A stretch of 64,000 bases of DNA from Eledone cirrhosa (lineage: Eukaryota). Both the position numbers and the translations under genes were made by a program. The stretch spans positions 387,624,001 to 387,688,000 of the forward strand of contig OZ024741.1 in NCBI GenBank assembly GCA_964016885.1, written 5' to 3'. Numbering within the stretch: position 1 is the first letter of the stretch; each line of letters opens with the position of its first letter. Positions 10,987 through 51,891 of this stretch are shown here, piece after piece. The notes under the pieces were generated by a model. That model saw nothing but the letters and a program-made list of their open reading frames with translations. It was not told the origin of the DNA and made no database searches.

Positions 10987-13900
10987 TTATTTGTGAGTAT
11001 TGGTAGTGTTATTGACAGTATTGGTAGCGTTATTTGTGAGTATTGGTAGTGTTATTTGTGAGTATTGGTAGTGTTATTTGTGAGTATTGGTAGTGTTATT
11101 TGTGAGTATTGGTAGTGTTATTTGTGAGTATTGGTAGTGTTATTTGTGAGTATTGGTAGTGTTATTTGTGAGTATTGGTAGTGTTATTTGTGAGTATTGG
11201 TAGTGTTATTTGTGAGTATTGGTAGTGTTATTTGTGAGTATTGGTAGAGTGTTATTTGTGAGTATTGGTAGTGTTATTTGTGAGTATTGGTAGTGTTATT
11301 TGTGAGTATTGGTAGTGTTATTTGTGAGTATTGGTAGTGTTATTTGTGAGTATTGGTAGTGTTATTTGTGAGTATTGGTAGAGTGTTATTTGTGAGTATT
11401 GGTAGTGTTATTTGTGAGTATTGGTAGTGTTATTTGTGAGTATTGGTAATGTTATTTGTGAGTATTGGTAGCGTTATTTGTGAGTATTGGTAGTGTTATT
11501 TGTGAGTATTGGTAGTGTTATTTGTGAGTATTGGTAGTGTTATTTGTGAGTATTGGTAGTGTTATTTGTGAGTATTGGTAGTGTTATTTGTGAGTATTGG
11601 TAGTGTTATTTGTGAGTATTGGTAATGTTATTTGTGAGTATTGGTAGCGTTATTTGTGAGTATTGGTAGAGTGTTATTTGTGAGTATTGGTAGAGTGTTA
11701 TTTGTGAGTATTGGTAGTGTTATTTGTGAGTATTGGTAGTGTTATTTGTGAGTATTGGTAGTGTTATTTGTGAGTATTGGTAGTGTTATTTGTGAGTATT
11801 GGTAGTGTTATTTGTGAGTATTGGTAGTGTTATTTGTGAGTATTGGTAGTGTTATTTGTGAGTATTGGTAGTGTTATTTGTGAGTATTGGTAGTGTTATT
11901 TGTGAGTATTGGTAGTGTGTTATTTGTGAGTATTGGTAGTGTTATTTGTGAGTATTGGTAGTGTTATTTGTGAGTATTGGTAGTGTTATTTGTGAGTATT
12001 GGTAGTGTTATTTGTGAGTATTGGTAGTGTTATTTGTGAGTATTGGTAGACTGTTATTTGTGAGTATTGGTAGAGCGTTATTTGTGAGTATTGGTAGAGC
12101 GTTATTTGTGAGTATTGGTAGTGTTATTTGTGAGTATTGGTAGTGCTATTTGTGAGTATTGGTAGAGCGTTATTTGTGAGTATTGGTAGAGCGTTATTTG
12201 TGAGTATTGGTAGAGCGTTATTTGTGAGTATTGGTAGTGCTATTTGTGAGTATTGGTAAAGTGTTGTTTGTGAGTATTGGTAGTGTTACTTGTGACTATT
12301 GGTAGAGCGTTATTTGTGAGTATTGGTAGAGCGTTAGTTGTGAGTATTGGTAGAGCGTTAGTTGTGAGTATTGGTAGAGCGTTATTTGTGAGTATTGGTA
12401 GAGCGTTATTTGTGAGTATTGGTAGTGTTACTTGTGACTATTGGTAGAGTGTTATTTGTGAGTATTGGTAGAGCGTTATTTGTGAGTATTGGTAGAGCGT
12501 TATTTGTGAGTATTGGTAGAGCGTTATTTGTGAGTATTGGTAGTGTTATTTGTGAGTATTGGTAGAGCGTTACTTGTGACTCTTGGTAGAGCGTTATTTG
12601 TGAGTATTGGTAGAGCGTTATTTGTGAGTATTGGTAGTGTTATTTGTGAGTATTGGTAGAGCGTTATTTGTGAGTATTGGTAGAGCGTTATTTGTGAGTA
12701 TTGGTAGTGCTATTTGTGAGTATTGGTAAAGTGTTATTTGTGAGTATTGGTAGTGTTATTTGTGAGTATTGGTAGAGCGTTATTTGTGAGTACTGGTAGA
12801 GCGTTATTTGTGAGTATTGGTAGAGCGTTATTTGTGAGTATTGGTAGAGCGCTATTTGTGAGTATTGGTAGTGCTATTTGTGAGTATTGGTAGAGTGTTA
12901 TTTGTGAGTATTGGTAGTGTTATTTGTGAGTATTGGTAGTGTTATTTGTGAGTATTGGTAGTGTTATTTGTGAGTATTGGTAGTGTTATTTGTGAGTATT
13001 GGTAGTGTTATTTGTGAGTATTGGTAGCGTTATTTGTGAGTATTGGTAGTGCTATTTGTGAGTATTGGTAGTGCTATTTGTGAGTATTGGTAGAGTGTTA
13101 TTTGTGAGTATTGGTAGTGTTATTTGTGAGTATTGGTAGTGTTATTTGTGAGTATTGGTAGTGTTATTTGTGAGTATTGGTAGTGTTATTTGTGAGTATT
13201 GGTAGTGCTATTTGTGAGTATTGGTAGAGTGCTATTTGTGAGTATTGGTAGAGCGTTATTTGTGAGTATTGGTAGAGCGTTATTTGTGAGTATTGGTAGA
13301 GCGTTATTTGTGAGTATTGGTAGTGTTATTTGTGAGTATTGGTAGTGTTATTTGTGAGTATTGGTAGTGTTATTTGTGAGTATTGGTAGTGTTATTTGTG
13401 AGTATTGGTAGTGTTATTTGTGAGTATTGGTAGTGTTATTTGTGAGTATTGGTAGTGTTATTTGTGAGTATTGGTAGCGTTATTTGTGAGTATTGGTAGT
13501 GCTATTTGTGAGTATTGGTAGAGCGTTATTTGTGAGTATTGGTAGAGCGTTATTTGTGAGTATTGGTAGAGCGTTATTTGTGAGTATTGGTAGAGCGCTA
13601 TTTGTGAGTATTGGTAGAGCGCTATTTGTGAGTATTGGTAGAGCGCTATTTGTGAGTATTGGTAGTGCTATTTGTGAGTATTGGTAGAGTGTTATTTGTG
13701 AGTATTGGTAGTGTTATTTGTGAGTATTGGTAGTGTTATTTGTGAGTATTGGTAGTGTTATTTGTGAGTATTGGTAGTGTTACTTGTGAGTATTGGTAGA
13801 GCGTTATTTGTGACTATTGGTAGTGTTATTTGTGAGTATTGGTAGTGTTATTTGTGAGTATTGGTAGTGTTATTTGTGAGTATTGGTAGTGTTATTTGTG

Positions 13901-16292
13901 AGTATTGGTAGAGTGTTATTTGTGAGTATTGGTAGAGCGTTGTTTGTGAGTATTGGTAGAGCATTGTTTGTGAGTATTGGTAGAGCGTTATTTGTGAGTA
14001 TTGGTAGTGTTATTTGTGAGTATTGGTAGTGTTATTTGTGAGTATTGGTAGTGTTATTTGTGAGTATTGGTAGTGTTATTTGTGAGTATTGGTAGAGCGT
14101 TATTTGTGAGTATTGGTAGAGCGTTATTTGTGAGTATTGGTAGTGTTATTTGTGAGTATTGGTAGAGTGTTATTTGTGAGTATTGGTAGTGTTATTTGTG
14201 AGTATTGGTAGTGTTATTTGTGAGTATTGGTAGTGTTATTTGTGAGTATTGGTAGTGTTATTTGTGAGTATTGGTAGTGTTATTTGTGAGTATTGGTAGA
14301 GCGTTATTTGTGACTATTGGTAGAGCGTTATTTGTGAGTATTGGTAGAGCGTTATTTGTGAGTATTGGTAGCGTTATTTGTGAGTATTGGTAGTGTTATT
14401 TGTGAGTATTGGTAGTGTTATTTGTGAGTATTGGTAGTGTTATTTGTGACTATTGGTAGAGTGTTATTTGTGAGTATTGGTAGAGTGTTATTTGTGAGTA
14501 TTGGTAGAGTGTTATTTGTGAGTATTGGTAGAGTATTATTTGTGAGTATTGGTAGTGTTATTTGTGAGTATTGGTAGTGTTATTTGTGAGTATTGGTAGT
14601 GTTATTTGTGAGTATTGGTAGAGCGTTATTTGTGAGTATTGGTAGTGTTATTTGTGAGTATTCGTAGTGTTACTTGTGAGTATTCGTAGTGTTACTTGTG
14701 AGTATTGGTAGAGTGTTATTTGTGAGTATTGGTAGTGTTATTTGTGAGTATTGGTAGTGTTACTTGTGAGTATTGGTAGTGTTATTTGTGAGTATTGGTA
14801 GAGCGTTATTTGTGAGTATTGGTAGTGTTATTTGTGAGTATTGGTAGTGTTATTTGTGAGTATTGGTAGTGTTATTTGTGAGTATTGGTAGTGTTATTTG
14901 TGAGTATTGGTAGTGTTATTTGTGAGTATTGGTAGAGTGTTATTTGTGAGTATTGGTAGAGTGTTATTTGTGAGTATTGGTAGAGTGTTATTTGTGAGTA
15001 TTGGTAGTGTTATTTGTGAGTATTGGTAGAGCGTTATTTGTGAGTATTGGTAGAGCGTTATTTGTGAGTATTGGTAGTGTTATTTGTGAGTATTGGTAGT
15101 GTTATTTGTGAGTATTGGTAGAGCGTTATTTGTGAGTATTGGTAGAGCGTTATTTGTGAGTATTGGTAGAGCGTTATTTGTGAGTATTGGTAGCGTTATT
15201 TGTGAGTATTGGTAGCGTTATTTGTGAGTATTGGTAGCGTTATTTGTGAGTATTGGTAGTGTTATTTGTGAGTATTGGTAGTGTTATTGACAGTATTGGT
15301 AGTGTTATTTGTGAGTATTGGTAGAGTGTTATTTGAGTATTGGTAGAGTGTTATTTGTGAGTATTCGTAGTGTTACTTGTGAGTATTGGTAGAGTGTTAT
15401 TTGTGAGTATTGGTAGTGTTACTTGTGAGTATTGGTAGAGCGTTATTTGTGAGTATTGGTAGTGTTATTTGTGAGTATTGGTAGAGCGTTATTTGTGAGT
15501 ATTGGTAGTGTTATTTGTGAGTATTGGTAGTGTTATTTGTGAGTATTGGTAGAGTGTTATTTGTGAGTATTGGTAGTGTTATTTGTGAGTATTGGTAGTG
15601 TTACTTGTGAGTATTGGTAGAGTGTTATTTGTGAGTATTGGTAGTGTTATTTGTGAGTATTGGTAGAGCGTTATTTGTGAGTATTGGTAGTGTTATTTGT
15701 GAGTATTGGTAGTGTTATTTGTGAGTATTGGTAGAGCCTTATTTGTGAGTATTGGTAGTGTTATTTGTGAGTATTGGTAGTGTTATTTGTGAGTATTGGT
15801 AGTGTTATTTGTGAGTATTGGTAGTGTTATTTGTGAGTATTGGTAGTGTTATTTGTGAGTATTGGTAGTGTTATTTGTGAGTATTGGTAGAGCGTTATTT
15901 GTGAGTATTGGTAGTGTTATTTGTGAGTATTGGTAGTGTTATTTGTGAGTATTGGTAGTGTTATTTGTGAGTATTGGTAGTGTTATTTGTGAGTATTGGT
16001 AATGTTATTTGTGAGTATTGGTAGTGTTATTTGTGAGTATTGGTAGTGTTATTTGTGAGTATTGGTAGTGTTATTTGTGAGTATTGGTAGTGTTATTTGT
16101 GAGTATTGGTAGTGTTATTTGTGAGTATTGGTAGTGTTACTTGTGAGTATTGGTAGTGTTATTTGTGAGTATTGGTAGTGTTATTTGTGAGTATTGGTAG
16201 TGTTATTTGTGAGTATTGGTAGAGTGTTATTTGTGAGTATTGGTAATGTTATTTGTGAGTATTGGTAGTGTTATTGACAGTATTGGTAGAGC
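10987..16292 (+). repeat. Minisatellite, 22/24-bp unit (ttatttgtgagtattggtagtg / ttatttgtgagtattggtagagcg), about 230 copies
   Basis: Direct reading; continuous for 5.3 kb and runs into a SINE at its right end. Confidence 0.99.
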
Positions 16293-16488
16293 ATCAAACA
16301 ACATGCTTCACAGCATTGAGTTATGGCCCATTATGTTCTGAGTTCAAATCCGGCTGAGGTTAGCTTTGCTTTTCATCCTTACAGGGTCGATAAAATAAAG
16401 TGCCAGTCACACACTGGGGTTTTATTCGACTTTATCCTCCACCAAAATTGTTGACTTTGTGACTAAATCAGAAACCGTTATTTGTGAG
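16273..16488 (+). mobile_element. tRNA-derived SINE (family S1) abutting the minisatellite
   Basis: Head attgacagtattggtagagc, B box gagttcaaatcc, core ctttgcttttcatccttacagggtcgataaaataaagt; homologous to 19780-19995. Confidence 0.9.
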
Positions 16489-16797
16489 GAATTCAATAAG
16501 GTGAAAACTTTTGTGATACAGAAATGTGTGTTTAAGGTGGAGTGAGTGAGATAAATAGGAAAATTAGCATAAGATAGTTATCAGTTGATAATCTTTTAAA
16601 AGGTAAGTGTTTATTTCAGGTTAAGTAAAAGCAGTAGAGTCATGTCTCATGATGATGTTGGTGGTGGTGGCAGTAGTGGTAGTGGTGATGATACTTTTAG
16701 GTCAAGTTTGGACAATATGTTTATTTTCTCAGGCTCTACAACCTAAATACATTGATTTAGGTTACTGCTAATGATATCAGGTAATCACCACTTTCAG

Positions 16798-17325
16798 CAG
16801 AGGCTGCTATTACAACCAAACCCCACTGAAGGTGGTGTAGTGGGTCTTCTCCCACCACCTTCACTAGAGGTTGCTATCACAACCAAACCCCTCTGAAGGT
16901 GGTGTAGTGGGTCTTCTCCCACCACCTTCACTAGAGGTTGCTATCACAACCAAACCCCTCTGAAGGTGGTGTAGTGGGTCTTCTCCCACCACCTCTACCA
17001 GAGGTTGCTATCACAACCAAACCCCTCTGAAGGTGGTGTAGTGGGTCTTCTCCCACCACCTTCACTAGAGGTTGCTATCACAACCAAACCCCTCTGAAGG
17101 TGGTGTAGTGGGTCTTCTCCCACCACCTTCACTAGAGGTTGCTATCACAACCAAACCCCTCTGAAGGTGGTGTAGTGGGTCTTCTCCCACCACCTCCACT
17201 AGAGGCTGCTATCACAATCAAACTCCTCTGAAGGTGGTGTAGTGGTTCTTCTCCCACCACACCACTACCTTCAGAGATTGCTATCACAACCAAACCCCAC
17301 TGAAGGGGTGTAGTAGGTCTCCCAC
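16798..17325. repeat. 67-bp minisatellite, about 8 copies, each with an internal hairpin
   Basis: Units start at 16867, 16934, 17001 etc.; tgaaggtggtg...caccaccttca is an 11-bp inverted repeat. Confidence 0.95.
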
Positions 17326-18237: not shown

Positions 18238-19304
18238 ATAGAGTATAAAGGTTGAAACACAGACAATTTCTTCCAGAGTAGGGGAAAGAGATAGAAGAAA
18301 GAGTGGCTAGTTGATTTTCATCAACTCCTAGAGTCTCCCCAACAACGTCGTTTTTACCTGCTCAAAACGTCTAGAGAGAGCTAAGATGGAGTTTCCACTG
18401 ATTGCACTGCCTGATTGGTTGAAGGCTGTGTGTACTTGGATACATTGCAGTTTCCAAGGACAAAGCCACTTCTATCTAGGGAAGGGGTATAGTAGATTGT
18501 ATTGCCTTGTTAATTTATCAACTCAGAGTATGTAAAAGACAAAATCAATCTTTTTGTCATTCAACTTATGACCATCCTTACTTTTTGTCTCTTTAAGGCT
18601 GGCTATATTGGACTATAGAATCCAGTGTGTCCTTTCCTTCTTTAAGACAATAGGTAGTAGTGATTTGAAGCAAATTTAGTTGCTATACCTAGCGGGGCTA
18701 GTAACCATGTAGAGGCTCCATTGCTGGAATATATATTTAGTTTTTGTGTTATAGGTCTCTTCTTATCCCCCTCCCCATCCCAGTTAGATTTACATATCTG
18801 TAAGGCATGGTGGTTGGTTTGGGTGAGTAGGTGGATGGGGAACGGCTTTCTGCTGACATTAACTTCACTACTTTCAAAGATAACAGAATTTACTTCTTGC
18901 TTACTCATCAGAGGTCATGACATCGAAAAAAATTATTAAAACAAACTTCATGAATATAAGTAGGTTCATTAAAGAACCCACTTCATGTCTTTCTGACAGA
19001 ATTGCTTGTCTGAACATAGTTGAAGGAGGTGTAATTAAAGATACCTTTCTATACATCAATCAATAATTATCTTACACACATTAAATAAATGGTGTTAGTG
19101 TTTTATTTTGTTTTATTTTGTAATCAGAAGTGTCTTTCAATGAATTGTTGTTGTTATGTAGACCTTAGCCCTGCTCAACCTTGTCTGAGCAGTCATGTGA
19201 TCAAAGGTGTTCCAGCGGTGATTAGCTAGGCTTCTTGTATATCTGCAAGTAAGTTTGACCTATGTGTCCTTCCATTTATATACATACTTACATACACAAC
19301 AAAA

Positions 19305-19620
19305 AGTATCCAACCCACCCAGTAAGGTGGACGTGTTGATAACACGAAAAAAGCACCCAGCCCACCCTGTAAAGTGGTTGTGTTGGTGGCATGATGAAAA
19401 GCACCCAGTTTACACTGTAAGGTGGTCATTTTGGTGCTTCAATGAAAAGCACCCAGTCCAAGCTGTAAATGTGGCTGGCATTAGGAAGGGCATCCAGCCG
19501 TAGAAACCAAACCAGAAACAGTTCTGTATGAGTACCTGATCTGACTTGTCTCATAACGGGACAAATCGTATAACGCATGCTAGCATGGATAAATGGCCAT
19601 TAAACAGTGAAGATGATGAT
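19305..19620 (+). mobile_element. RTE 3'UTR-derived fragment
   Basis: Repeated cacccag...ctgtaaagtgg units, ggaagggcatccagccgtagaaac motif, gatgatgat tail. Similar pieces at 1066-1270(-), 26040-26195, 29545-29795, 32355-32536, 53750-54065 and 54995-55215. Confidence 0.75.
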
Positions 19621-22064: not shown

Positions 22065-22632
22065 ATCATCATCATCATTACCATTTTACGCCCATTTTTC
22101 CATGCTGGCATGGGCAATGTTAGGTCAGGTGTCAATGTCTTGCTCATACAGAACTGATTTTGGCTGGTTTCTACAGCTGGATGCCCTTCCTTGCGCTAAC
22201 TTCATCTACAGTGAGTACTGGGTGCTGTTTGTCGTGATACCTACATGACCACTTTACAGTGTGGACTGGGTGCTGTTTGTCGTGATACCTACTTGACCAC
22301 TTTACAGTGTGGACTGGATGCTTTTTGTCGTGACATCTACTTGACCACTTTACAGTGTGGACTGGATGCTTTTTGTCGTGACACCTACAAGACCACTTTA
22401 CAGTGTTGGCTGGGAACTTTTTACCATGTCACCATCTATGGTGATGTATGGGAGGGTGGGGTAGAGTGGTGTATACAGTATATATGCTTCAGGTTCAGCT
22501 TGTGCCCCTGGGAAGTCGGGACTTCTGTATAACCGCGTAACGCCAGTGATCTCCATCCTGTGTCATCGCCTTTGAGAGGTGCAATTGGGCAAGGTCAGCT
22601 TTTATCGCTTCATCCCAAGTCTTCCTGGGCCA
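22065..22632 (-). mobile_element. RTE family 1 3' end with expanded 48-bp 3'UTR repeat
   Basis: Homologous to 1712-2110; (CAT)n on + strand at 22065; 4-5 tandem 48-bp units at 22218-22430. Confidence 0.85.
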
Positions 22633-30251: not shown

Positions 30252-31691
30252 TTAACTCTTTTGATACCAACCCATCTGAAACCACCCTGGCTTTTATTAT
30301 ATAAAACTGCCTGTTTTAAAGTGTTCATATATTAAAATATTTCATCATAATTTTATTTAAGAACTTTTTTTCAAGTAATGATCCAAACTTAATAATTACA
30401 AAATTAGTTATTTTACTTGAAGCTATCTACAATGTCTATGGATCCTTAATGAGACTGAAAAAGGTTTATATCATTAGCAGTCTTCCTCTCGATTTCTGCT
30501 GTGCATCTTCTACAAGCAAAGTACTCCCTTCCTGTTAGTCTACTTGTTATCCCACTACATCTTTTGTGCACCCAAGATTTACATTGTGTACATTGCATGG
30601 AGTTTATGCCTACTCCTTTTCTGCATATTGAGCATGGCCACTTTCCTGAGAGAATCTGGGTCCTCTCTTCTCTCCTACTCACTAGCACTTTAGTTTTGGC
30701 TAAGTTTACTCTCAGGCCTTTTGATTCCAAATTCAGTTTCCATAATTGGAATTTATTTTCTAACTCTTTATTGGTTTCAACTATAAGGACCAAATGATCT
30801 GCATAGAGAAACTTCCATTGGCAGCCCATTTTAAACTCCTCTGTTATAGCCTGGAGAACTATGATGAACAACAATGGGCTAAGAATTGAATCTTGATGAA
30901 CTTCTACCTGTACCTTGAATTCCTTGCTAAACTCATTTCCTACTCTCACTTTACTGACAGCTCCTCTGTGCATAGCTTTCATTGCGCTCACAAGCCATTC
31001 TTCTATATCTAATTTCCTTAAGGACCACCAGATAACAGATCGGGGTAGTCTATCAAAGGCCTTTTCTAGATCAACAAAAGCTAAATGTAGTGATTTGTTT
31101 TTGGCTAAGAACTTCTTCTGTAGTTGCCTCGCTAAGAGCAGTGCATCTGTAGTGCTTTTCCCAGGCATGAAACCAAACTGCATCTCATCTATTTTGACTA
31201 TTTCCCTAATTAGCTGTGCTATAATTCTTTCGGTCACTTTCATAATTTGGTCCATTAGTTTTATTCTTCTATAATTGCTCATTTTTAGAGCATCATCTTT
31301 GCCCTTGTAGCAATTTATGATTGTACTGCTGCACCAGACATTGGGTATGACGATGTCATGTATTACTTGATTTACTATACAGGTTTCTATTTTGACTCCT
31401 ACCTCTCCCGATGCTTTCAGTATCTCAACAATTATTTCTGATGGTCTTGCAGTTTTACCATTTTTCATCTTCTTGATTGCGTCTTTGACCTTAAAACTAT
31501 CAACTTCAATAGCTGGTCATTCCTTTGGGTAAGTTGGGGGTAGTTTCTTTTCCTCCCATTCATTCTCTACATTCATTGATCTCTCATAGTAACATTTCCA
31601 GACCTCTTGGAAATGCTACTATGAGAGATCACTATTAATTGAAATGCATGGGCAGTGTATCTTTTTAGAAACATGGTAACAAAAGGGTTAA
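30252..31691 (-). mobile_element. M1 MITE hosting an RTE fragment
   Basis: ttaactcttttgatacc...ggtaacaaaagggttaa ends. Confidence 0.78.
30418..31610 (-). mobile_element. RTE internal RT fragment with no 3' tail, nested in a TTAA MITE
   Basis: ORF 30446-31468 has RT motifs (AFVDLEKAFD, LYADH) and WPCSICRKGVGINSMQCTQCKSWVHKRC. Confidence 0.92.
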
Positions 31692-35263: not shown

Positions 35264-35340
35264 ATAATAATTTGATGTAAAGAAAAAAAAAATGAAATCA
35301 ATGTGCTTAGTTAATACTTTTTTTTAAATTTTGTCTTCAG

Positions 35341-35550
35341 ACCATTCTGTGTATCCTGACAAAGAATGGAAAACTCCCAACAACATATTGTTTGAGATAT
35401 TTTTAGCCAAACTGAAAGCTTCTCATGGTCGAGAAATTAAACTGTCTCTGAAAGACTGTCAGGAATTTACAAAGTCTTTGACAAAACGAAAGACTGAGAG
35501 AACCATGTCAGCTTCTTCTTTATTCAATGAAACACAGCATGAAGAATCAG
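35341..35550 (+). CDS. SZT2: SZT2-like exon C (...PNNILFEIFLAKLKASHGREIKLSLKDCQEF...)
   Basis: tcttcag acceptor, gtaaag donor, 210 nt, phase 1 to 1. Lies within ORF 35331-35627; phases consistent with neighbours. Confidence 0.88.
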
Positions 35551-35984
35551 GTAAAGAAGCTTTTCACTTGTTTAACCCTTTAAGTGAACATAATTCTAAG
35601 GAAATACAATCTATTTTAATTAATTAACAAAGACTTTTGAAGGATTTACTAAAAATATTATTTTATTACTAAGATAGTAACTTAACATGGTTCTTATAAA
35701 AAATTATGTTAGAAAATTTTAATTTAAATTATCATTATCTTCATTCCGACCACAGTCGAGCATTCCTAACAAAGTCCCTCCATAATTCACAATTTTCTAT
35801 TGCTCCTGGCAACTGCTCCCTACTGAGGTTTGTATCGTCTGAGAGTTGATCGATGAAGGTTCGAGCAAGTCTTCCTTAATTTAAATAGGCACCCTTTAAA
35901 ATGGGTGGTTTTGTTTTATAGAACCAGAGCTGGTTTTGGCTGGACTGGTATCAAATGGGTTATATTCTTTCATTAGTTTCAAAG

Positions 35985-38900
35985 GTACGGTATTTGTTTT
36001 AATAAAACTTGGAAGGATGATATGCACTGTTGACCTGGATAAGGTTTGAAATCAGAATGTAAAGAGAAGTAACCAAATAGCACAATGTATTTTGTCTGAC
36101 ACTCTACTGATTTTGTCAAAAGCTCAATGTATTTTGTCTGACACTCTACTGATTCTGTCAATAGCACAATGTATTTTGTCTGACACTCTACTGATTCTGT
36201 CAAAAGCTCAATGTATTTTGTCTGACACTCTACTGATTCTGTCAATAGCACAATGTATTTTGTCTGACACTACTGATTCTGTCAATAGCTCAATGTATTT
36301 TGTCTGACACTCTACTGATTCTGTCAAAAGCTCAATGTATTTTGTCTGACACTATTGATTCTGTCAATAGCTCAATGTATTTTGTCTGACACTCTACTGA
36401 TTCTGTCAATAGCTCAATGTATTTTGTCTGACACTACTGATTCTGTTAATAGCACAATGTATTTTGTCTGACACTATTGATTCTGTCAATAGCACAATGT
36501 ATTTTGTCTGACACTCTACTGATTCTGTCAATAGCACAATGTATTTTGTCTGACACTATTGATTCTGTCAATAGCACAATGTATTTTGTCTGACACTCTA
36601 CTGATTCTGTCAATAGCTCAATGTATTTTGTCTGACACTCTACTGATTCTGTCAATAGCACAATGTATTTTGTCTGACACTATTGATTCTGTCAATAGCA
36701 CAATGTATTTTGTCTGACACTCTACTGATTCTGTCAAAAGCACAATGTATTTTGTCTGACACTCTACTAATTCTGTCAATAGCACAATGTATTTTGTCTG
36801 ACACTCTACTGATTCTGTCAATAGCTCAATGTATTTTGTCTGACACTCTACTGATTCTGTCAATAGCACAATGTATTTTGTCTGACACTATTGATTCTGT
36901 CAATAGCTCAATGTATTTTGTCTGACACTCTACTGATTCTGTCAATAGCACAATGTATTTTGTCTGACACTCTACTGATTCTGTCAATAGCTCAATGTAT
37001 TTTGTCTGACACTCTACTGATTCTGTCAATAGCACAATGTATTTTGTCTGACACTATTGATTCTGTCAATAGCACAATGTATTTTGTCTGACACTATTGA
37101 TTCTGTCAATAGCTCAATGTATTTTGTCTGACACTATTGATTCTGTCAATAGCTCAATGTATTTTGTCTGACACTCTTCTGATTCTGTCAATAGCACTAT
37201 GTATTTTGTTTGACACTCTACTGATTCTGTCAATAGCACAATGTATTTTGTTTGACACTATTGATTCTGTCAAAAGCTCAATGTATTTTGTCTGACACTA
37301 TTGATTCTGTCAAAAGCTCAATGTATTTTGCTTGACACTACTGATTCTGTCAATAGCTCAATGTATTTTGTCTGACACTCTACTGATTCTGTCAATAGCA
37401 CAATGTATTTTGCTTGACACTACTGATTCTGTCAAAAGCTCAATGTATTTTGTCTGACACTCTACTGATTCTGTCAATAGCACAATGTATTTTGTCTAAC
37501 ACTCTACTGATTATGTCAATAGCACAATGTATTTTGTCTGACACTCTACTGATTCTGTCAATAGCACAATGTATTTTGTCCGACACTATTGAATCTGTCA
37601 ATAGCTCAATGTATTTTGTCTGACACTCTACTGATTCTGTCAATAGCACAATGTATTTTGTCTGACACTCTACTGATTCTGTCAATAGCACAATGTATTT
37701 TGTCTGACACTCTACTGATTCTGTCAATAGCTCAATGTATTTTGTCTGACACTCTACTGATTCTGTCAATAGCACAATGTATTTTGTCTGACACTATTGA
37801 TTCTGTCAAAAGCTCAATGTATTTTGTCTGACACTCTACTGATTCTGTCAATAGCACAATGTATTTTGTCTGACACTATTTATTCTGTCAATAGCACAAT
37901 GTATTTTGTCTGACACTCTTCTGATTCTGTCAAAAGCTCAATGTATTTTGTCTGACACTCTTCTGATTCTGTCAAAAGCACAATGTATTTTGTCTGACAC
38001 TATTGATTCTGTCAATAGCACAATGTATTTTGTCTGACACTCTACTGATTCTGTCAAAAGCACAATGTATTTTGTCTGACACTCTACTAATTCTGTCAAT
38101 AGCACAATGTATTTTGTCTGACACTCTACTGATTCTGTCAATAGCTCAATGTATTTTGTCTGACACTCTACTGATTCTGTCAATAGCACAATGTATTTTG
38201 TCTGACACTATTGATTCTGTCAATAGCTCAATGTATTTTGTCTGACACTCTACTGATTCTGTCAATAGCACAATGTATTTTGTCTGACACTCTACTGATT
38301 CTGTCAATAGCTCAATGTATTTTGTCTGACACTCTACTGATTCTGTCAATAGCACAATGTATTTTGTCTGACACTATTGATTCTGTCAATAGCACAATGT
38401 ATTTTGTCTGGCACTATTGATTCTGTCAATAGCTCAATGTATTTTGTCTGACACTATTGATTCTGTCAATAGCTCAATGTATTTTGTCTGACACTCTTCT
38501 GATTCTGTCAATAGCACTATGTATTTTGTTTGACACTCTACTGATTCTGTCAATAGCACAATGTATTTTGTTTGACACTATTGATTCTGTCAAAAGCTCA
38601 ATGTATTTTGTCTGACACTATTGATTCTGTCAAAAGCTCAATGTATTTTGCTCGACACTACTGATTCTGTCAATAGCTCAATGTATTTTGTCTGACACTC
38701 TACTGATTCTGTCAATAGCACAATGTATTTTGCTTGACACTACTGATTCTGTCAAAAGCTCAATGTATTTTGTCTGACACTCTACTGATTCTGTCAATAG
38801 CACAATGTATTTTGTCTAACACTCTACTGATTATGTCAATAGCACAATGTATTTTGTCTGACACTCTACTGATTCTGTCAATAGCACAATGTATTTTGTC

Positions 38901-41900
38901 CGACACTATTGAATCTGTCAATAGCTCAATGTATTTTGTCTGACACTCTACTGATTCTGTCAATAGCACAATGTATTTTGTCTGACACTCTACTGATTCT
39001 GTCAATAGCACAATGTATTTTGTCTGACACTCTACTGATTCTGTCAATAGCTCAATGTATTTTGTCTGACACTCTACTGATTCTGTCAATAGCACAATGT
39101 ATTTTGTCTGACACTATTGATTCTGTCAATAGCACAATGTATTTTGTCTGACACTCTTCTGATTCTGTCAAAAGCTCAATGTATTTTGTCTGACACTCTA
39201 CTGATTCTGTCAATAGCACAATGTATTTTGTCTGACACTCTACTGATTCTGTCAATAGCTCAATGTATTTTGTCTGACACTCTACTGATTCTGTCAATAG
39301 CACAATGTATTTTGTCTGACACTATTGATTCTGTCAATAGCACAATGTATTTTGTCTGACACTATTGATTCTGTCAATAGCTCAATGTATTTTGTCTGAC
39401 ACTATTGATTCTGTCAATAGCTCAATGTATTTTGTCTGACACTCTTCTGATTCTGTCAATAGCACTATGTATTTTGTTTGACACTCTACTGATTCTGTCA
39501 ATAGCACAATGTATTTTGTTTGACACTATTGATTCTGTCAAAAGCTCAATGTATTTTGTCTGACACTATTGATTCTGTCAAAAGCTCAATGTATTTTGCT
39601 TGACACTACTGATTCTGTCAATAGCTCAATGTATTTTGTCTGACACTCTACTGATTCTGTCAATAGCACAATGTATTTTGCTTGACACTACTGATTCTGT
39701 CAAAAGCTCAATGTATTTTGTCTGACACTCTACTGATTCTGTCAAAAGCTCAATGTATTTTGTCTGACACTCTACTGATTCTGTCAATAGCACAATGTAT
39801 TTTGTCTAACACTCTACTGATTATGTCAATAGCACAATGTATTTTGTCTGACACTCTACTGATTCTGTCAATAGCACAATGTATTTTGTCCGACACTATT
39901 GAATCTGTCAATAGCTCAATGTATTTTGTCCGACACTATTGAATCTGTCAATAGCTCAATGTATTTTGTCTGACACTCTACTGATTCTGTGAATAGCACA
40001 ATGTATTTTGTCTGACACTCTACTGATTCTGTCAATAGCACAATGTATTTTGTCTGACACTCTACTGATTCTGTCAATAGCTCAATGTATTTTGTCTGAC
40101 ACTCTACTGATTCTGTCAATAGCACAATGTATTTTGTCTGACACTATTGATTCTGTCAAAAGCTCAATGTATTTTGTCTGACACTCTACTGATTCTGTCA
40201 ATAGCACAATGTATTTTGTCTGACACTATTGATTCTGTCAATAGCACAATGTATTTTGTCTGACACTCTTCTGATTCTGTCAAAAGCTCAATGTATTTTG
40301 TCTGACACTCTTCTGATTCTGTCAAAAGCTCAATGTATTTTGTCTGACACTCTACTGATTCTGTCAATAGCACAATGTATTTTGTCTGACACTACTGATT
40401 CTGTCAATAGCTCAATGTATTTTGTCTGACACTCTACTGATTCTGTCAATAGCACAATGTATTTTGTCTGACACTATTGATTCTGTCAAAAGCTCAATGT
40501 ATTTTGTCTGACACTCTACTGATTCTGTCAATAGCACAATGTATTTTGTCTGACACTATTGATTCTGTCAATAGCACAATGTATTTTGTCTGACACTCTT
40601 CTGATTCTGTCAAAAGCTCAATGTATTTTGTCTGACACTCTTCTGATTCTGTCAAAAGCTCAATGTATTTTGTCTGACACTCTACTGATTCTGTCAATAG
40701 CACAATGTATTTTGTTTGACACTACTGATTCTGTCAATAGCACAATGTATTTTGTCTGACACTCTACTGATTCTGTCAATAGCTCAATGTATTTTGTCTG
40801 ACACTCTACTGATTCTGGCAATAGCACAATGTATTTTGTCTGACACTCTACTGATTCTGTCAATAGCACAATGTATTTTGTCTGACACTATTGATTCTGT
40901 CAATAGCTCAATGTATTTTGTCTGACACTCTACTGATTCTGTCAATAGCTCAATGTATTTTGTCTGACATTACTGATTCTGTCAATAGCACAATGTATTT
41001 TGTCTGACACTATTGATTCTGTCAATAGCACAATGTATTTTGTCTGACACTATTGATTCTGTCAATAGCACAATGTATTTTGACTGACACTCTACTGATT
41101 CTGTCAATAGCACAATGTATTTTGTCTGACACTATTGATTCTGTCAATAGCACAATGTATTTTGTCTGACACTCTACTGATTCTGTCAATAGCTCAATGT
41201 ATTTTGTCTGACACTCTACTGATTCTGTCAATAGCACAATGTATTTTGTCTGACACTATTGATTCTGTCAATAGCACAATGTATTTTGTCTGACACTCTA
41301 CTGATTCTGTCAAAAGCACAATGTATTTTGTCTGACACTCTACTGATTCTGTCAATAGCACAATGTATTTTGTCTGACACTCTACTGATTCTGTCAATAG
41401 CTCAATGTATTTTGTCTGACACTCTACTGATTCTGTCAATAGCACAATGTATTTTGCTTGACACTACTGATTCTGTCAAAAGCTCAATGTATTTTGTCTG
41501 ACACTCTACTGATTCTGTCAATAGCACAATGTATTTTGTCTAACACTCTACTGATTATGTCAATAGCACAATGTATTTCGTCTGACACTCTACTGATTCT
41601 GTCAATAGCACAATGTATTTTGTCCGACACTATTGAATCTGTCAATAGCTCAATGTATTTTGTCTGACACTCTACTGATTCTGTCAATAGCACAATGTAT
41701 TTTGTCTGACACTCTACTGATTCTGTCAATAGCACAATGTATTTTGTCTGACACTCTACTGATTCTGTCAATAGCTCAACGTATTTTGTCTGACACTCTA
41801 CTGATTCTGTCAATAGCACAATGTATTTTGTCTGACACTATTGATTCTGTCAAAAGCTCAATGTATTTTGTCTGACACTCTACTGATTCTGTCAATAGCA

Positions 41901-44900
41901 CAATGTATTTTGTCTGACACTATTGATTCTGTCAATAGCACAATGTATTTTGTCTGACACTCTTCTGATTCTGTCAAAAGCTCAATGTATTTTGTCTGAC
42001 ACTCTTCTGATTCTGTCAAAAGCTCAATGTATTTTGTCTGACACTCTACTGATTCTGTCAATAGCACAATGTATTTTGTTTGACACTACTGATTCTGTCA
42101 ATAGCACAATGTATTTTGTCTGACACTCTACTGATTCTGTCAATAGCTCAATGTATTTTGTCTGACACTCTACTGATTCTGTCAATAGCACAATGTATTT
42201 TGTCTGACACTCTACTGATTCTGTCAATAGCACAATGTATTTTGTCTGACACTATTGATTCTGTCAATAGCTCAATGTATTTTGTCTGACACTCTACTGA
42301 TTCTGTCAATAGCACAATGTATTTTGTCTGACACTATTGATTCTGTCAATAGCACAATGTATTTTGTCTGACACTCTACTGATTCTGTCAAAAGCACAAT
42401 GTATTTTGTCTGACACTCTACTGATTCTGTCAATAGCACAATGTATTTTGTCTGACACTATTGATTCTGTCAATAGCACAATGTATTTTGTCTGACACTA
42501 TTGATTCTGTCAATAGCACAATGTATTTTGTCTGACACTCTACTGATTCTGTCAATAGCACAATGTATTTTGTCTGACACTATTGATTCTGTCAATAGCA
42601 CAATGTATTTTGTCTGACACTCTACTGATTCTGTCAATAGCTCAATGTATTTTGTCTGACACTCTACTGATTCTGTCAATAGCACAATGTATTTTGTCTG
42701 ACACTATTGATTCTGTCAATAGCACAATGTATTTTGTCTGACACTCTACTGATTCTGTCAAAAGCACAATGTATTTTGTCTGACACTCTACTAATTCTGT
42801 CAATAGCACAATGTATTTTGTCTGACACTCTACTGATTCTGTCAATAGCTCAATGTATTTTGTCTGACACTCTACTGATTCTGTCAATAGCACAATGTAT
42901 TTTGTCTGACACTATTGATTCTGTCAATAGCTCAATGTATTTTGTCTGACACTCTACTGATTCTGTCAATAGCACAATGTATTTTGTCTGACACTCTACT
43001 GATTCTGTCAATAGCTCAATGTATTTTGTCTGACACTCTACTGATTCTGTCAATAGCACAATGTATTTTGTCTGACACTATTGATTCTGTCAATAGCACA
43101 ATGTATTTTGTCTGACACTATTGATTCTGTCAATAGCTCAATGTATTTTGTCTGACACTCTTCTGATTCTGTCAATAGCACTATGTATTTTGTTTGACAC
43201 TCTACTGATTCTGTCAATAGCACAATGTATTTTGTTTGACACTATTGATTCTGTCAAAAGCTCAATGTATTTTGTCTGACACTATTGATTCTGTCAAAAG
43301 CTCAATGTATTTTGCTTGACACTACTGATTCTGTCAATAGCTCAATGTATTTTGTCTGACACTCTACTGATTCTGTCAATAGCACAATGTATTTTGCTTG
43401 ACACTACTGATTCTGTCAAAAGCTCAATGTATTTTGTCTGACACTCTACTGATTCTGTCAAAAGCTCAATGTATTTTGTCTGACACTCTACTGATTCTGT
43501 CAATAGCACAATGTATTTTGTCTAACACTCTACTGATTATGTCAATAGCACAATGTATTTTGTCTGACACTGTACTGATTCTGTCAATAGCACAATGTAT
43601 TTTGTCCGACACTATTGAATCTGTCAATAGCTCAATGTATTTTGTCTGACACTCTACTGATTCTGTGAATAGCACAATGTATTTTGTCTGACACTCTACT
43701 GATTCTGTCAATAGCACAATGTATTTTGTCTGACACTCTACTGATTCTGTCAATAGCTCAATGTATTTTGTCTGACACTCTACTGATTCTGTCAATAGCA
43801 CAATGTATTTTGTCTGACACTATTGATTCTGTCAAAAGCTCAATGTATTTTGTCTGACACTCTACTGATTCTGTCAATAGCACAATGTATTTTGTCTGAC
43901 ACTATTGATTCTGTCAATAGCACAATGTATTTTGTCTGACACTCTTCTGATTCTGTCAAAAGCTCAATGTATTTTGTCTGACACTCTTCTGATTCTGTCA
44001 AAAGCTCAATGTATTTTGTCTGACACTCTACTGATTCTGTCAATAGCACAATGTATTTTGTTTGACACTACTGATTCTGTCAATAGCACAATGTATTTTG
44101 TCTGACACTCTACTGATTCTGTCAATAGCTCAATGTATTTTGTCTGACACTCTACTGATTCTGTCAATAGCACAATGTATTTTGTCTGACACTCTACTGA
44201 TTCTGTCAATAGCACAATGTATTTTGTCTGACACTACTGATTCTGTCAATAGCTCAATGTATTTTGTCTGACACTCTACTGATTCTGTCAATAGCACAAT
44301 GTATTTTGTCTGACACTATTGATTCTGTCAATAGCACAATGTATTTTGTCTGACACTACTGATTCTGTCAATAGCTCAATGTATTTTGTCTGACACTCTA
44401 CTGATTCTGTCAATAGCACAATGTATTTTGTCTGACACTCTACTGATTCTGTCAATAGCACAATGTATTTTGTCTGACACTCTACTGATTCTGTCAATAG
44501 CTCAATGTATTTTGTCTGACACTCTACTGATTCTGTCAATAGCTCAATGTATTTTGTCTGACACTACTGATTCTGTCAATAGCACAATGTATTGATTCTG
44601 TCAATAGCACAATGTATTTTGTCTGACACTACTGATTCTGTCAATAGCACAATGTATTTTGTCTGACACTCTACTGATTCTGTCAATAGCACAATGTATT
44701 TTGTCTGACACTACTGATTCTGTCAATAGCTCAATGTATTTTGTCTGACATTCTACTGATTCTGTCAATAGCACAATGTATTTTGTCTGACACTCTACTG
44801 ATTCTGTCAATAGCACAATGTATTTTGTCTGACACTATTGATTCTGTCAATAGCTCAATGTATTTTGTCTGACACTCTACTGATTCTGTCAATAGCTCAA

Positions 44901-47900
44901 TGTATTTTGTCTGACACTACTGATTCTGTCAATAGCACAATGTATTTTGTCTGACACTCTACTGATTCTGTCAATAGCACAATGTATTTTGTCTGACACT
45001 CTACTGATTCTGTCAATAACACAAAGTATTTTGTCTGACACTATTGATTCTGTCAATAGCTCAATGTATTTTGTCTGACACTCTACTGATTCTGTCAATA
45101 GCACAATGTATTTTGTCTGACACTCTACTGATTCTGTCAATAGTACAATGTATTTTGTCTGACACTATTGATTCTGTCAATAGCTCAATGTATTTTGTCT
45201 GACACTATTGATTCTGTCAATAGCACAATGTATTTTGTCTGACACTATTGATTCTGTCAATAGCTCAATGTATTTTGTCTGACACTATTGATTCTGTCAA
45301 TAGCACAATGTATTTTGTCTGACACTCTACTGATTCTGTCAATAGTACAATGTATTTTGTCTGACACTATTGATTCTGTCAATAGCTCAATGTATTTTGT
45401 CTGACACTATTGCTTCTGTCAATAGCTCAATGTATTTTGTCTGACACTATTGATTCTGTCAATAGCACAATGTATTTTGTCTGACACTATTGATTCTGTC
45501 AATAGCTCAATGTATTTTGTCTGACACTATTGATTCTGTCAATAGCACAATGTATTTTGTCTGACACTCTACTGATTCTGTCAATAGCACAATGTATTTT
45601 GTCTGACACTATTGATTCTGTCAATAGCTCAATGTATTTTGTCTGACACTATTGATTCTGTCAATAGCACAATGTATTTTGTCTGACACTATTGATTCTG
45701 TCAATAGCTCAATGTATTTTGTCTGACACTATTGATTCTGTCAATAGCACAATGTATTTTGTCTGACACTCTACTGATTCTGTCAATAGCTCAATGTATT
45801 TTGTCTGACACTCTACTGATTCTGTCAATAGCACAATGTATTTTGTCTGACACTCTACTGATTCTGTCAATAGCACAATGTATTTTGTCTGACACTCTAC
45901 TGATTCTGTCAATAGCACAATGTATTTTGTCTGACACTCTACTGATTCTGTCAATAGCACAATGTATTTTGTCTGACACTCTACTGATTCTGTCAATAGC
46001 ACAATGTATTTTGTCTGACACTCTACTGATTCTGTCAATAGTACAATGTATTTTGTCTGACACTATTGATTCTGTCAATAGCTCAATGTATTTTGTCTGA
46101 CACTATTGATTCTGTCAATAGCACAATGTATTTTGTCTGACACTCTACTGATTCTGTCAATAGCACAATGTATTTTGTCTGACACTCTACTGATTCTGTC
46201 AATAGCTCAATGTATTTTGTCTGACACTACTGATTCTGTCAATAGCACAATGTATTTTGTCTGACACTCTACTGATTCTGTCAATAGCACAATGTATTTT
46301 GTCTGACACTCTACTGATTCTGTCAATAGCACAATGTATTTTGTCTGACACTCTACTGATTCTGTCAATAGTACAATGTATTTTGTCTGACACTATTGAT
46401 TCTGTCAATAGCTCAATGTATTTTGTCTGACACTATTGATTCTGTCAATAGCACAATGTATTTTGTCTGACACTCTACTGATTCTGTCAATAGCACAATG
46501 TATTTTGTCTGACACTCTACTGATTCTGTCAATAGCTCAATGTATTTTGTCTGACACTATTGATTCTGTCAATAGCACACTGTATTTTGTCTGACACTAT
46601 TGATTCTGTCAATAGCACAATGTATTTTGTCTGACACTATTGATTCTGTCAATAGCACAATGTATTTTGTCTGACACTATTGATTCTGTCAATAGCACAA
46701 TGTATTTTGTCTGACACTCTACTGATTCTGTCAATAGCTCAATGTATTTTGTCTGACACTATTGATTCTGTCAATAGCTCAATGTATTTTGTCTGACACT
46801 CTACTGATTCTGTCAATAGCACAATGTATTTTGTCTGACACTCTACTGATTCTGTCAATAGCACAATGTATTTTGTCTGACCCTCTACTGATTCTGTCAA
46901 TAGCACAATGTATTTTGTCTGACACTCTACTGATTCTGTCAATAGCACAATGTATTTAATCTGACACTCTACTGATTCTGTCAATAGCACAATGTATTTT
47001 GTCTGACACTATTGATTCTGTCAATAGCACAATGTATTTTGTCTGACACTACTGATTCTGTCAATAGCTCAATGTATTTTGTCTGACACTATTGATTCTG
47101 TCAATAGCTCAATGTATTTTGTCTGACACTATTGATTCTGTCAATAGCTCAATGTATTTTGTCTGACACTCTACTGATTCTGTCAATAGCTCAATGTATT
47201 TTGTCTGACACTCTACTGATTCTGTCAATAGCACAATGTATTTTGTCTGACACTATTGATTCTATCAATAGCACAATATATTTTGTCTGACACTATTGAT
47301 TCTGTCAATAGCACAATGTATTTTGTCTGACACTATTGATTCTGTCAATAGCTCAATGTATTTTGTCTGACACTATTGATTCTGTCAATAGCACAATGTA
47401 TTTTGTCTGACACTCTACTGATTCTGTCAAAAGCACAATGTATTTTGTCTGACACTATTGATTCTGTCAATAGCACAATGTATTTTGTCTGACACTATTG
47501 ATTCTGTCAATAGCTCAATGTATTTTGTCTGACACTATTGATTCTGTCAATAGCACAATGTATTTTGTCTGACACTACTGATTCTGTCAATAGCACAATG
47601 TATTTTGCTTGACACTACTGATTCTGTCAAAAGCTCAATGTATTTTGTCTGACACTCTACTGATTCTGTCAATAGCACAATGTATTTTGTCTAACACTCT
47701 ACTGATTATGTCAATAGCACAATGTATTTTGTCTGACACTCTACTGATTCTGTCAATAGCACAATGTATTTTGTCTGACACTATTGATTCTGTCAATAGC
47801 ACAATGTATTTTGTCTGACACTCTTCTGATTCTGTCAAAAGCTCAATGTATTTTGTCTGACACTCTTCTGATTCTGTCAAAAGCTCAATGTATTTTGTCT

Positions 47901-50900
47901 GACACTCTACTGATTCTGTCAATAGCACAATGTATTTTGTTTGACACTACTGATTCTGTCAATAGCACAATGTATTTTGTCTGACACTCTACTGATTCTG
48001 TCAATAGCTCAATGTATTTTGTCTGACACTCTACTGATTCTGTCAATAGCACAATGTATTTTGTCTGACACTCTACTGATTCTGTCAATAGCACAATGTA
48101 TTTTGTCTGACACTACTGATTCTGTCAATAGCTCAATGTATTTTGTCTGACACTCTACTGATTCTGTCAATAGCACAATGTATTTTGTCTGACACTATTG
48201 ATTCTGTCAATAGCACAATGTATTTTGTCTGACACCACTGATTCTGTCAATAGCTCAATGTATTTTGTCTGACACTCTACTGATTCTGTCAATAGCACAA
48301 TGTATTTTGTCTGACACTCTACTGATTCTGTCAATAGCACAATGTATTTTGTCTGACACACTACTGATTCTGTCAATAGCTCAATGTATTTTGTCTGACA
48401 CTCTACTGATTCTGTCAATAGCTCAATGTATTTTGTCTGACACTACTGATTCTGTCAATAGCACAATGTATTGATTCTGTCAATAGCACAATGTATTTTG
48501 TCTGACACTACTGATTCTGTCAATAGCACAATGTATTTTGTCTGACACTCTACTGATTCTGTCAATAGCACAATGTATTTTGTCTGACACTACTGATTCT
48601 GTCAATAGCTCAATGTATTTTGTCTGACACTCTACTGATTCTGTCAATAGCACAATGTATTTTGTCTGTCACTCTACTGATTCTGTCAATAGCACAATGT
48701 ATTTTGTCTGACACTATTGATTCTGTCAATAGCTCAATGTATTTTGTCTGACACTCTACTGATTCTGTCAATAGCTCAATGTATTTTGTCTGACACTCTA
48801 CTGATTCTGTCAATAGCACAATGTATTTTGTCTGACACTCTACTGATTCTGTCAATAGCACAAAGTATTTTGTCTGACACTCTACTGATTCTGTCAATAG
48901 TACAATGTATTTTGTCTGACACTATTGATTCTGTCAATAGCTCAATGTATTTTGTCTGACACTATTGATTCTGTCAATAGCACAATGTATTTTGTCTGAC
49001 ACTATTGATTCTGTCAATAGCTCAATGTATTTTGTCTGACACTATTGATTCTGTCAATAGCACAATGTATTTTGTCTGACACTCTACTGATTCTGTCAAT
49101 AGTACAATGTATTTTGTCTGACACTATTGATTCTGTCAATAGCTCAATGTATTTTGTCTGACACTATTGCTTCTGTCAATAGCTCAATGTATTTTGTCTG
49201 ACACTATTGATTCTGTCAATAGCACAATGTATTTTGTCTGACACTATTGATTCTGTCAATAGCTCAATGTATTTTGTCTGACACTATTGATTCTGTCAAT
49301 AGCACAATGTATTTTGTCTGACACTCTACTGATTCTGTCAATAGCTCAATGTATTTTGTCTGACACTCTACTGATTCTGTCAATCGCACAATGTATTTTG
49401 TCTGACACTCTACTGATTCTGTCAATAGCACAATGTATTTTGTCTGACACTCTACTGATTCTGTCAATAGCACAATGTATTTTGTCTGACACTCTACTGA
49501 TTCTGTCAATAGCACAATGTATTTTGTCTGACACTCTACTGATTCTGTCAATAGCACAATGTATTTTGTCTGACACTCTACTGATTCTGTCAATAGTACA
49601 ATGTATTTTGTCTGACACTATTGATTCTGTCAATAGCTCAATGTATTTTGTCTGACACTATTGCTTCTGTCAATAGCTCAATGTATTTTGTCTGACACTA
49701 TTGATTCTGTCAATAGCACAATGTATTTTGTCTGACACTATTGATTCTGTCAATAGCTCAATGTATTTTGTCTGACACTATTGATTCTGTCAATAGCACA
49801 ATGTATTTTGTCTGACACTCTACTGATTCTGTCAATAGCTCAATGTATTTTGTCTGACACTCTACTGATTCTGTCAATCGCACAATGTATTTTGTCTGAC
49901 ACTCTACTGATTCTGTCAATAGCACAATGTATTTTGTCTGACACTCTACTGATTCTGTCAATAGCACAATGTATTTTGTCTGACACTCTACTGATTCTGT
50001 CAATAGCACAATGTATTTTGTCTGACACTCTACTGATTCTGTCAATAGCACAATGTATTTTGTCTGACACTCTACTGATTCTGTCAATAGTACAATGTAT
50101 TTTGTCTGACACTATTGATTCTGTCAATAGCTCAATGTATTTTGTCTGACACTATTGATTCTGTCAATAGCACAATGTATTTTGTCTGACACTCTACTGA
50201 TTCTGTCAATAGCACAATGTATTTTGTCTGACACTCTACTGATTCTGTCAATAGCTCAATGTATTTTGTCTGACACTACTGATTCTGTCAATAGCACAAT
50301 GTATTTTGTCTGACACTCTACTGATTCTGTCAATAGCACAATGTATTTTGTCTGACACTCTACTGATTCTGTCAATAGCACAATGTATTTTGTCTGACAC
50401 TATTGATTCTGTCAATAGCACAATGTATTTTGTCTGACACTCTACTGATTCTGTCAATAGCTCAATGTATTTTGTCTGACACTATTGATTCTGTCAATAG
50501 CTCAATGTATTTTGTCTGACACTCTACTGATTCTGTCAATAGCACAATGTATTTTGTCTGACACTCTACTGATTCTGTCAATAGCACAATGTATTTTGTC
50601 TGACACTCTACTGATTTTGTCAATAGCACAATGTATTTTGTCTGACACTCTACTGATTCTGTCAATAGCACAATGTATTTAATCTGACACTCTACTGATT
50701 CTGTCAATAGCACAATGTATTTTGTCTGACACTATTGATTCTGTCAATAGCACAATGTATTTTGTCTGACACTACTGATTCTGTCAATAGCTCAATGTAT
50801 TTTGTCTGACACTATTGATTCTGTCAATAGCTCAATGTATTTTGTCTGACACTATTGATTCTGTCAATAGCTCAATGTATTTTGTCTGACACTCTACTGA

Positions 50901-51891
50901 TTCTGTCAATAGCTCAATGTATTTTGTCTGACACTCTACTGATTCTGTCAATAGCACAATGTATTTTGTCTGACACTATTGATTCTATCAATAGCACAAT
51001 ATATTTTGTCTGACACTATTGATTCTGTCAATAGCACAATGTATTTTGTCTGACACTATTGATTCTGTCAATAGCTCAATGTATTTTGTCTGACACTATT
51101 GATTCTGTCAATAGCACAATGTATTTTGTCTGACACTCTACTGATTCTGTCAAAAGCACAATGTATTTTGTCTGACACTATTGATTCTGTCAATAGCTCA
51201 ATGTATTTTGTCTGACACTATTGATTCTGTCAATAGCACAATGTATTTTGTCTGACACTACTGATTCTGTCAATAGCACAATGTATTTTGTCTGACACTA
51301 TTGATTCTGTCAATAGCTCAATGTATTTTGTCTGACACTCTACTGATTCTGTCAATAGCACAATGTATTTTGTCTGACACTCTACTGATTCTGTCAATAG
51401 CACAATGTATTTTGTCTGACACTCTACTGATTCTGTCAATAGCACAATGTATTTTGTCTGACACTCTACTGATTCTGTCAATAGCACAATGTATTTTGTC
51501 TGACACTATTTATTCTGTCTGACACTCTACTGATTCTGTCAATAGCACAATGTATTTTGTCTGACACTATTGATTCTGTCAATAGTTCAATGTATTTTGT
51601 CTGACACTCTACTGATTCTGTCAATAGCACAATGTATTTTGTCTGACACTCTACTGATTCTGTCAATAGCACAATGTATTTTGTCTGACACTCTACTGAT
51701 TCTGTCAATAGCACAATGTATTTTGTCTGACACTCTACTGATTCTGTCAATAGCACAATGTATTTTGTCTGACACTCTACTGATTCTGTCAATAGCACAA
51801 TGTATTTTGTCTGACACTCTACTGATTCTGTCAATAGCTCAATGTATTTTGTCTGACACTCTACTGATTCTGTCATCCAATGCCACCACCA
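35985..51891 (-). mobile_element. Old S1-type tRNA-SINE split by the 40/42-bp satellite
   Basis: Minus strand: head ggtggtggcattggatgacagaatcagtagag at 51891-51860. After the array: ctttacattctgatttcaaacc...ggtcaacagtgcatatcatccttcc...aaaacaaatacc (B box + core) at 36075-35988. Confidence 0.8.
36076..51875. repeat. Satellite, 40/42-bp unit (aatagcacaatgtattttgtctgacactctactgattctgtc), about 380 copies, 15.8 kb
   Basis: Direct reading; explains all LSDTLLILSIAQC / TESVECQTKYI ORFs. Confidence 0.99.

Follow-up and report, generated by a model that had tools for sequence, protein, structure and literature searches.

Two minisatellites on different copies of a tRNA-like SINE in Eledone cirrhosa, probably expanded independently from the SINE head

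The window analysed here is a 64,000-bp stretch of the Eledone cirrhosa genome (C2:387624001-387688000 in a genome of 3.0 Gb) on a 416-Mb contig whose end is 29 Mb away. It contains two long tandem arrays (Table 1) that an earlier note had described together with their periods, and TRF found both: array 1 with a period of 22 and 233.9 copies, and array 2 with a period of 42 in two stretches, 36076-51507 (374.7 copies) and 51504-51875 (8.9 copies), with 92-94% matches in the two arrays. Splitting array 1 into its units yields three lengths, 22 bp (150 units), 24 bp (80) and 21 bp (3).

Table 1. Positions of the arrays, their host SINE copies and the neighbouring putative exons in the window
Feature	Position	Strand	Basis
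Array 1: 22/24-bp units, n = 233, single locus	10987..16289	+	TRF, unit splitting
Left TSD copy, opening the first unit of array 1	10987..10997	+	sequence; TTATT-initial TSDs at other loci
SINE carrying array 1: nt 10-222 of the younger, long-tailed type	16273..16482	+	consensus identity
Right TSD copy, with the same sequence as the left half of the main array-1 unit	16478..16488	+	sequence
Likely host-gene exon, ending at a CAG/GT donor	35328..35549	+	open frame, donor read from sequence
3' remnant of the array-2 host SINE, nt ~55-141, decayed B box	35989..36075	-	consensus identity
Array 2: 42/40-bp units, n = ~380, from nt 13-54 of the old SINE subfamily	36076..51875	-	TRF, consensus mapping
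5' remnant of the array-2 host SINE, nt ~1-13	51876..51890	-	sequence
Likely SZT2 exon downstream of array 2, end approximate	53018..53365	+	weak SZT2 match, acceptor read from sequence
Open frame with likely SZT2 exon	58967..59236	+	SZT2 match

Both arrays adjoin remnants of a SINE whose 222-bp consensus we built from 29 relatives of the copy 3' of array 1. It is a short, dispersed, non-coding element of very high copy number (284 matches in a profile search of a systematic sample of 118 stretches of 10 kb, or 1.18 Mb), its copies have ATT-repeat tails and TSDs with an initial TTATT, and they fall into a younger and an older subfamily. The head of the element contains an exact match to the B-box consensus and a one-mismatch match to that of the A box. 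It shares TAGAGCGTC with the D-arm of a genomic tRNA-Ile, a 9-nt identity that places the AG site discussed below just 3' of the A box. Rfam called no tRNA in the single SINE copy scanned, ARAGORN found none within the 64-kb window, and there was no Pfam match. Its copy number, TSDs and tail are those of a tRNA-derived SINE, and its head may be tRNA-related. We take it to resemble the tRNA-derived SINEs of octopus, which Ohshima and Okada reportedly described in 1994; the likeness lies in the apparently tRNA-like head, the very high copy number and the ATT tail. Broken LINE-like reverse-transcriptase frames at 2104-4471 (-), 30449-31516 (-) and 61213-62142 (+) in the window, presumably RTE-like, are possible partners of the SINE.

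Array 1 opens with TTATTTGTGAG, and since the same sequence recurs at the 3' end of the SINE (16478-16488) we identify it as the TSD of that insertion. The dominant unit consists of 11 bp of target-site DNA, which is not SINE, and SINE nt ~18-30, with an AG overlap common to both parts. The half unit TATTGACAG is present in only 3 of the 233 units, namely the three of 21 bp; these SINE-like units (TTATT plus nt 13 onward) stand second, near the end and last in the array. The order of the units makes the following course of events likely: a short duplication of the head at the 5' junction of the SINE insertion would have produced an imperfect 24/23-bp pair (target site plus nt 18-30, then TTATT plus nt 13 onward) of which the first member was amplified, and the pair would have been duplicated and then expanded inside, a course from which the positions of the TATTGACAG units are expected. 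The host SINE is closer to the young consensus than to the old one (86 versus 77% identity). All 190 genome-wide matches to a 20-mer of the array-1 unit lie inside the window; array 1 is confined to one locus and forms no multi-locus satellite family. Public reads over the array-1 junction are dominated by other SINE copies. Related-species reads over window positions 16245-16780 contain joints from SINE nt ~42-45 back to nt 10, which suggests that head multimers also occur in that species.

Array 2 sits within an older copy, whose identity is 74% with the old consensus and 67% with the young one. In the consensus its unit is flanked by ATT at nt 10-12 and at nt 52-54, and slippage between these two triplets, 42 bp apart in the older SINE copy, would have started the array in the usual direct-repeat manner. 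Blocks of unit variants recur over 1-4 kb, which implies that large block duplications took place as well. The array-2 pattern has 401 genome-wide matches, of which 319 are in the window; the two that were inspected among the 82 outside both had a different unit. The array probably occupies an intron of SZT2. The 53018..53365 frame has a weak match to SZT2 residues 1117-1150 (E 0.011-0.03), and the 58967..59236 frame matches residues 1304-1350 (E 5e-4), colinear with the first. We infer that the likely exon at 35328-35549, which gave no PDB match, belongs to the same gene; its region has 17 differences in 381 bp from the related species. Another protein search returned no match at E ≤ 0.001. 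The likely intron (35550-53017, splice sites read from the sequence) is 17.5 kb long and about 90% of it is array 2, in line with the intron inflation that the earlier note had thought possible. A contig of the related species aligns to 35828-36117 (36 differences over 290 bp) and has 194 further letters beyond; by this alignment the host SINE of array 2 predates the split of the two species, and the array itself may be younger than the split, on what is suggestive evidence only.

How closely do the two units correspond? Both arrays adjoin a SINE remnant and their units overlap at nt 18-30, and to that extent they derive from a homologous SINE segment as the earlier note held; the left 11 bp of the array-1 unit are target site and fall outside the homology. 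The array-1 string quoted in support has no match in the window (the array-2 string has 175), for it joins the left half of 3 of the 233 units to the common right half. When compared with the array-2 unit against 1000 shuffles each, the dominant array-1 22-mer (p = 0.61) and the 24-mer (p = 0.31) show no similarity beyond chance, and only the rare last unit of array 1 resembles it (p = 0.002). The proposed independent origin from two SINE copies agrees with their different subfamilies and orientations, with the TSD inside the array-1 unit and with the single-locus occurrence of that unit.

The 24/22- and 42/40-bp length variants had been ascribed to loss of AG, and correctly so: AG is missing from TAGAG in 152 of the 233 units of array 1 and in 156 of the 380 scored in array 2 (41-65%). 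Mapped to the SINE, the losses in the two arrays coincide just 3' of the A box, where AG forms an (AG)2 doublet. We consider it likely that AG was lost twice, by slippage. This is favoured by a single occurrence of the deletion in an unrelated array (L240, below), by nine AG-less array-1 units in which the ancestral C is retained (GTAGCG), a type of which array 2 shows no example, by a linked private G>A in 120 of the 156 AG-less array-2 units, by exact sharing of only 7 bp around the short alleles of the two arrays, and by the different subfamilies of the host copies. A single origin, with the loss passed between the arrays (20 kb apart and inverted) or inherited from a rare AG-less SINE lineage, appears unlikely to us: the 7 identical bases come with no co-converted flanking markers, the host copies differ in subfamily, the termini of both host SINEs retain AG, and AG-less array-1 units with C exist. 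It draws some strength from a G>A at nt 14 that both host copies have and only 5 of 97 single heads share, from the apparent exchange of variants across loci in a 45-bp family (below), and from the rarity of the deletion elsewhere. AG deletion was found in none of 101 dispersed heads (one ambiguous) and, in scored stretches shorter than the window arrays (at most ~60 units each) and with the TAGAGYG context rare among them, in one unit of one of 49 arrays (an unrelated array, L240) and in none of 104 arrays of the 45-bp family (1,549 units, context mostly TAGAGGG and not TAGAGYG). These counts do not support loss of AG as a general trait of such arrays. These comparison indels come from the alignment-based list alone, and 49 of 60 loci gave an array; a regular-expression tally of AG-less units was dropped since a TTGGTAG variant at nt 11-17 made its counts too high. 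An AG-less unit beside the SINE body has 10 genome-wide matches, among which by eye only array 1 is true, against 27 for the AG-intact form. That AG-less units reach 41-65% in both of the two window arrays is a somewhat unusual coincidence, and counts against independent slippage, as does the near absence of deletions at the other dinucleotide doublets of the units.

The earlier note also saw in the A-box region a recurrent satellite seed and in the arrays possible series of partial TFIIIC A-box motifs. We regard it as very improbable that the A box drives amplification and that its multimers in the two arrays are bound by TFIIIC or influence chromatin. Both units do include part of the A-box region, no segment of the SINE is duplicated as often as the head (below), and 225 sites in array 1 are one-mismatch A-box matches, as in the SINE consensus. 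Yet in array 2 such matches are no rarer on the antisense strand (331 versus 258), target DNA replaces half of the A-box interval in array 1, the AG indel lies outside the A box, and most head units genome-wide start at the SINE 5' end instead of having the A box at their centre. Most of the affinity of TFIIIC resides in the B box. By the consensus motifs neither array 1 nor array 2 contains an exact A-box or B-box match, and arrays of TFIIIC sites are unsupported because the units lack a B box; according to PMC4490372, TFIIIC binds both boxes through two subcomplexes. No promoter or TFIIIC role is supported for the arrays, which are likely neutral. Taken together, we put the probability at roughly 0.8 that the two arrays are minisatellites on different SINE copies that expanded independently from the head, lost AG twice by slippage, and are neutral and recruit no TFIIIC. 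Their later growth would be due to the usual turnover of minisatellites, in a distal part of the chromosome of the kind in which head arrays are enriched.

Is the SINE head a recurrent seed of tandem arrays? We searched the genome for three copies of an 8-mer at a period of 18-48 anchored to the SINE body, with reversed controls. The head gave 172 matches, the B box 14, two body segments 4 and 36, and the tail 1, and the reversed controls all gave 0. Per 10,000 eligible copies, as estimated from 26-60 single matches in the sample, the rates are 26 for the head, 0.9 for the B box, 0.3 and 2.4 for the body segments and 0.07 for the tail. The head is a real duplication hotspot genome-wide. Its excess is weakened, and the suggestion of a general seed with it, because among 100 head matches listed 76 belong by eye to one 44-46-bp class that starts at the SINE 5' end; the other 24 represent 22 loci, of which 8 may be deletion derivatives and 2 are of 47 bp. 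Independent head junctions then number ~3-6 per 10,000 copies, against ~2 for the body segment with its own internal repeat. Mapping of TRF arrays to the SINE consensus, which in a random sample has little power, found one clearly SINE-derived array (L102) among the 203 complex tandem arrays of the 1.18 Mb, a second case (L123) being ambiguous with a score of 20, the control level; of 102 head-bearing SINE copies in the sample one was multi-headed. The SINE-to-satellite route is a minor source of minisatellites in this genome.

Several further repeats were seen in the course of these searches. A second, weaker hotspot lies at SINE nt ~122-154, where many of the 36 matches agree with a period of 33 bp, which coincides with the internal GGGGTCGAT repeat of the SINE. 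At L123 (4-2592 and 2730-2858) a head-like 28-bp array of ~93 copies, inverted, adjoins a SINE at nt 30, with similarity at control level. An unanchored triple-motif search (11,965 against 8,421 in its reversed control) counts units and not loci, and was not used for enrichment. The window also has short 47-48-bp arrays at 19294-19474, 22207-22414 and 62699-62818 with related units of another dispersed repeat, similar 48-51-bp arrays being present at L173, and minisatellites of 67, 133 and 138 bp at 16786-17320, 8074-8430 and 59295-59794, respectively. One 10-kb sample stretch, matched by period to L138 (C4, 316.0 Mb), has a ~1.58-kb tandem repeat whose units each contain a SINE fragment and a tRNA-Ile(AAT) gene, of which 7 were seen.

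The 45-bp class comprises at least 543 loci with two heads 45 bp apart (for example L179-L208, L256-L285 and L298-L355), and is the only one of the features tested that has the same unit at many loci; the two window arrays are both outside it. Among its arrays on C1-C3 (79 loci listed, one dropped as not of the 45-bp class), 72 of 78 are within 60 Mb of an end, where 29% are expected. Single heads are flat along the chromosomes (8 in 18, 26 in 62 and 20 in 38 sample stretches), and minisatellites in general cover 16% of the distal sample stretches against 7% of the interior ones. Copy number declines away from the end (rho = -0.30, p = 0.002, n = 104, the loci analysed being on C1-C4 and mostly in listing order, so that C1 is over-represented). 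The left end could be resolved in 82 loci. The leftmost head lacks nt 0-4 in 40 of them, all 40 of which have nt 0-4 at their internal junctions (26 with a TSD), and flank bases match the junction at 0 of 42 intact left ends. Since the internal junctions carry nucleotides that the leftmost head is missing, and the flank does not match, the junction was imported; slippage after insertion on microhomology with the flank is rejected for this family by the same 0 of 42. Folding of one SINE copy (z = -0.19) offers no structural reason for a junction at nt 44.

How was the junction imported? The bodies of the 104 arrays are of three subfamilies (61, 30 and 13). Arrays on one chromosome arm have rare variants in common (p = 0.0015 for 73 arrays, 0.013 for the 50 with at least 10 units, and 0.02 without the left arm of C1), but arrays of one subfamily do not (p = 0.85). 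There is local homogenisation too, with 66 of 94 variants of the body head present in the units. The pattern suggests exchange across loci as the best fit, with ready-made insertion and regional mutation bias as possible alternatives. We propose tentatively, at somewhat less than even odds, that the 45-bp minisatellite spreads among SINE copies by conversion of distal single-headed insertions, which take up units copied from other arrays and keep their own TSD, 5' truncation and body. It is also possible, if on balance doubtful, that the multi-head form was inserted ready-made, through transcription from an upstream head or jumps of reverse transcriptase onto short head RNAs, and then expanded only locally. 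The TSD brackets the whole multimer in 59 of the 82 resolved loci, 4 of 86 loci begin inside a unit, and the junction falls at a T3 run and is independent of the flank, all of which agree with ready-made insertion; such insertion fits poorly with three body subfamilies whose boundaries the variants ignore, with variants that track the chromosome arm, and with the presence of 13 of 15 dimers within 60 Mb of an end when single heads are evenly spread. L316 (C2, 392.29 Mb) and L348 (C4, 182.6 Mb) have the same left flank with 21 and 4 heads, respectively, which may reflect either duplication or repeated use of one target site.

Comparable repeats are known in reptiles. Vassetzky et al. 2023 (PMC10702118) describe squamate sSats as arrays whose units are taken from a segment of a tRNA-related SINE, with dominant variants and a subtelomeric preference that is stronger in longer loci, and leave open whether sSats exist outside squamates. 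By analogy, both arrays match this class of SINE-derived satellites. Array 2 continues into SINE on both sides and array 1 on its 3' side (half of its unit being target DNA); where sSats have at least four homogeneous middle units, our arrays have 233 and ~380; and the 45-bp family shares the subtelomeric preference. As in squamate sSats, a longer terminal unit runs to the SINE end, units number from a few to hundreds and one variant dominates many loci, whereas the units here are 19-50 bp against ~70-290 nt, stem for the most part from the head at its extreme 5' end, can include target-site DNA and are in an invertebrate host. Ahmed and Liang 2012 (PMC3389668; citing Jurka and Gentles 2006 and Haber and Louis 1998) describe human minisatellites in Alu and other TEs that arise by local duplication starting at short direct repeats, like array 2. 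AluS has regional hotspots, and in 136 cases the repeated part of the Alu is at the 5' end; the human cases average ~2.3 units, whereas the arrays here reach hundreds, and one fixed junction recurs at more than 500 loci. For cephalopods, PMC9223172 cites octopus tRNA-derived SINEs (Ohshima and Okada 1994), an octopus repeat annotation (PMC13282606) has in the passages searched no word beginning "satellite", and a literature search that took in few subscription journals found no report of SINE-head arrays.

The A-box and TFIIIC idea and the shared indel add little to this picture. The two arrays would extend SINE-derived satellites from reptiles to a mollusc host, and in array 2 the derivative of a single SINE copy makes up about 90% of a likely 17.5-kb intron. 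The more than 500 loci of the 45-bp family, each with a TSD and a subfamily-marked body, offer a countable system for the question of how one satellite variant comes to dominate. If the family does spread as we tentatively propose, the window arrays would be its one-off relatives, and the hundreds of thousands of SINE heads in this genome would be landing pads for a self-propagating minisatellite.
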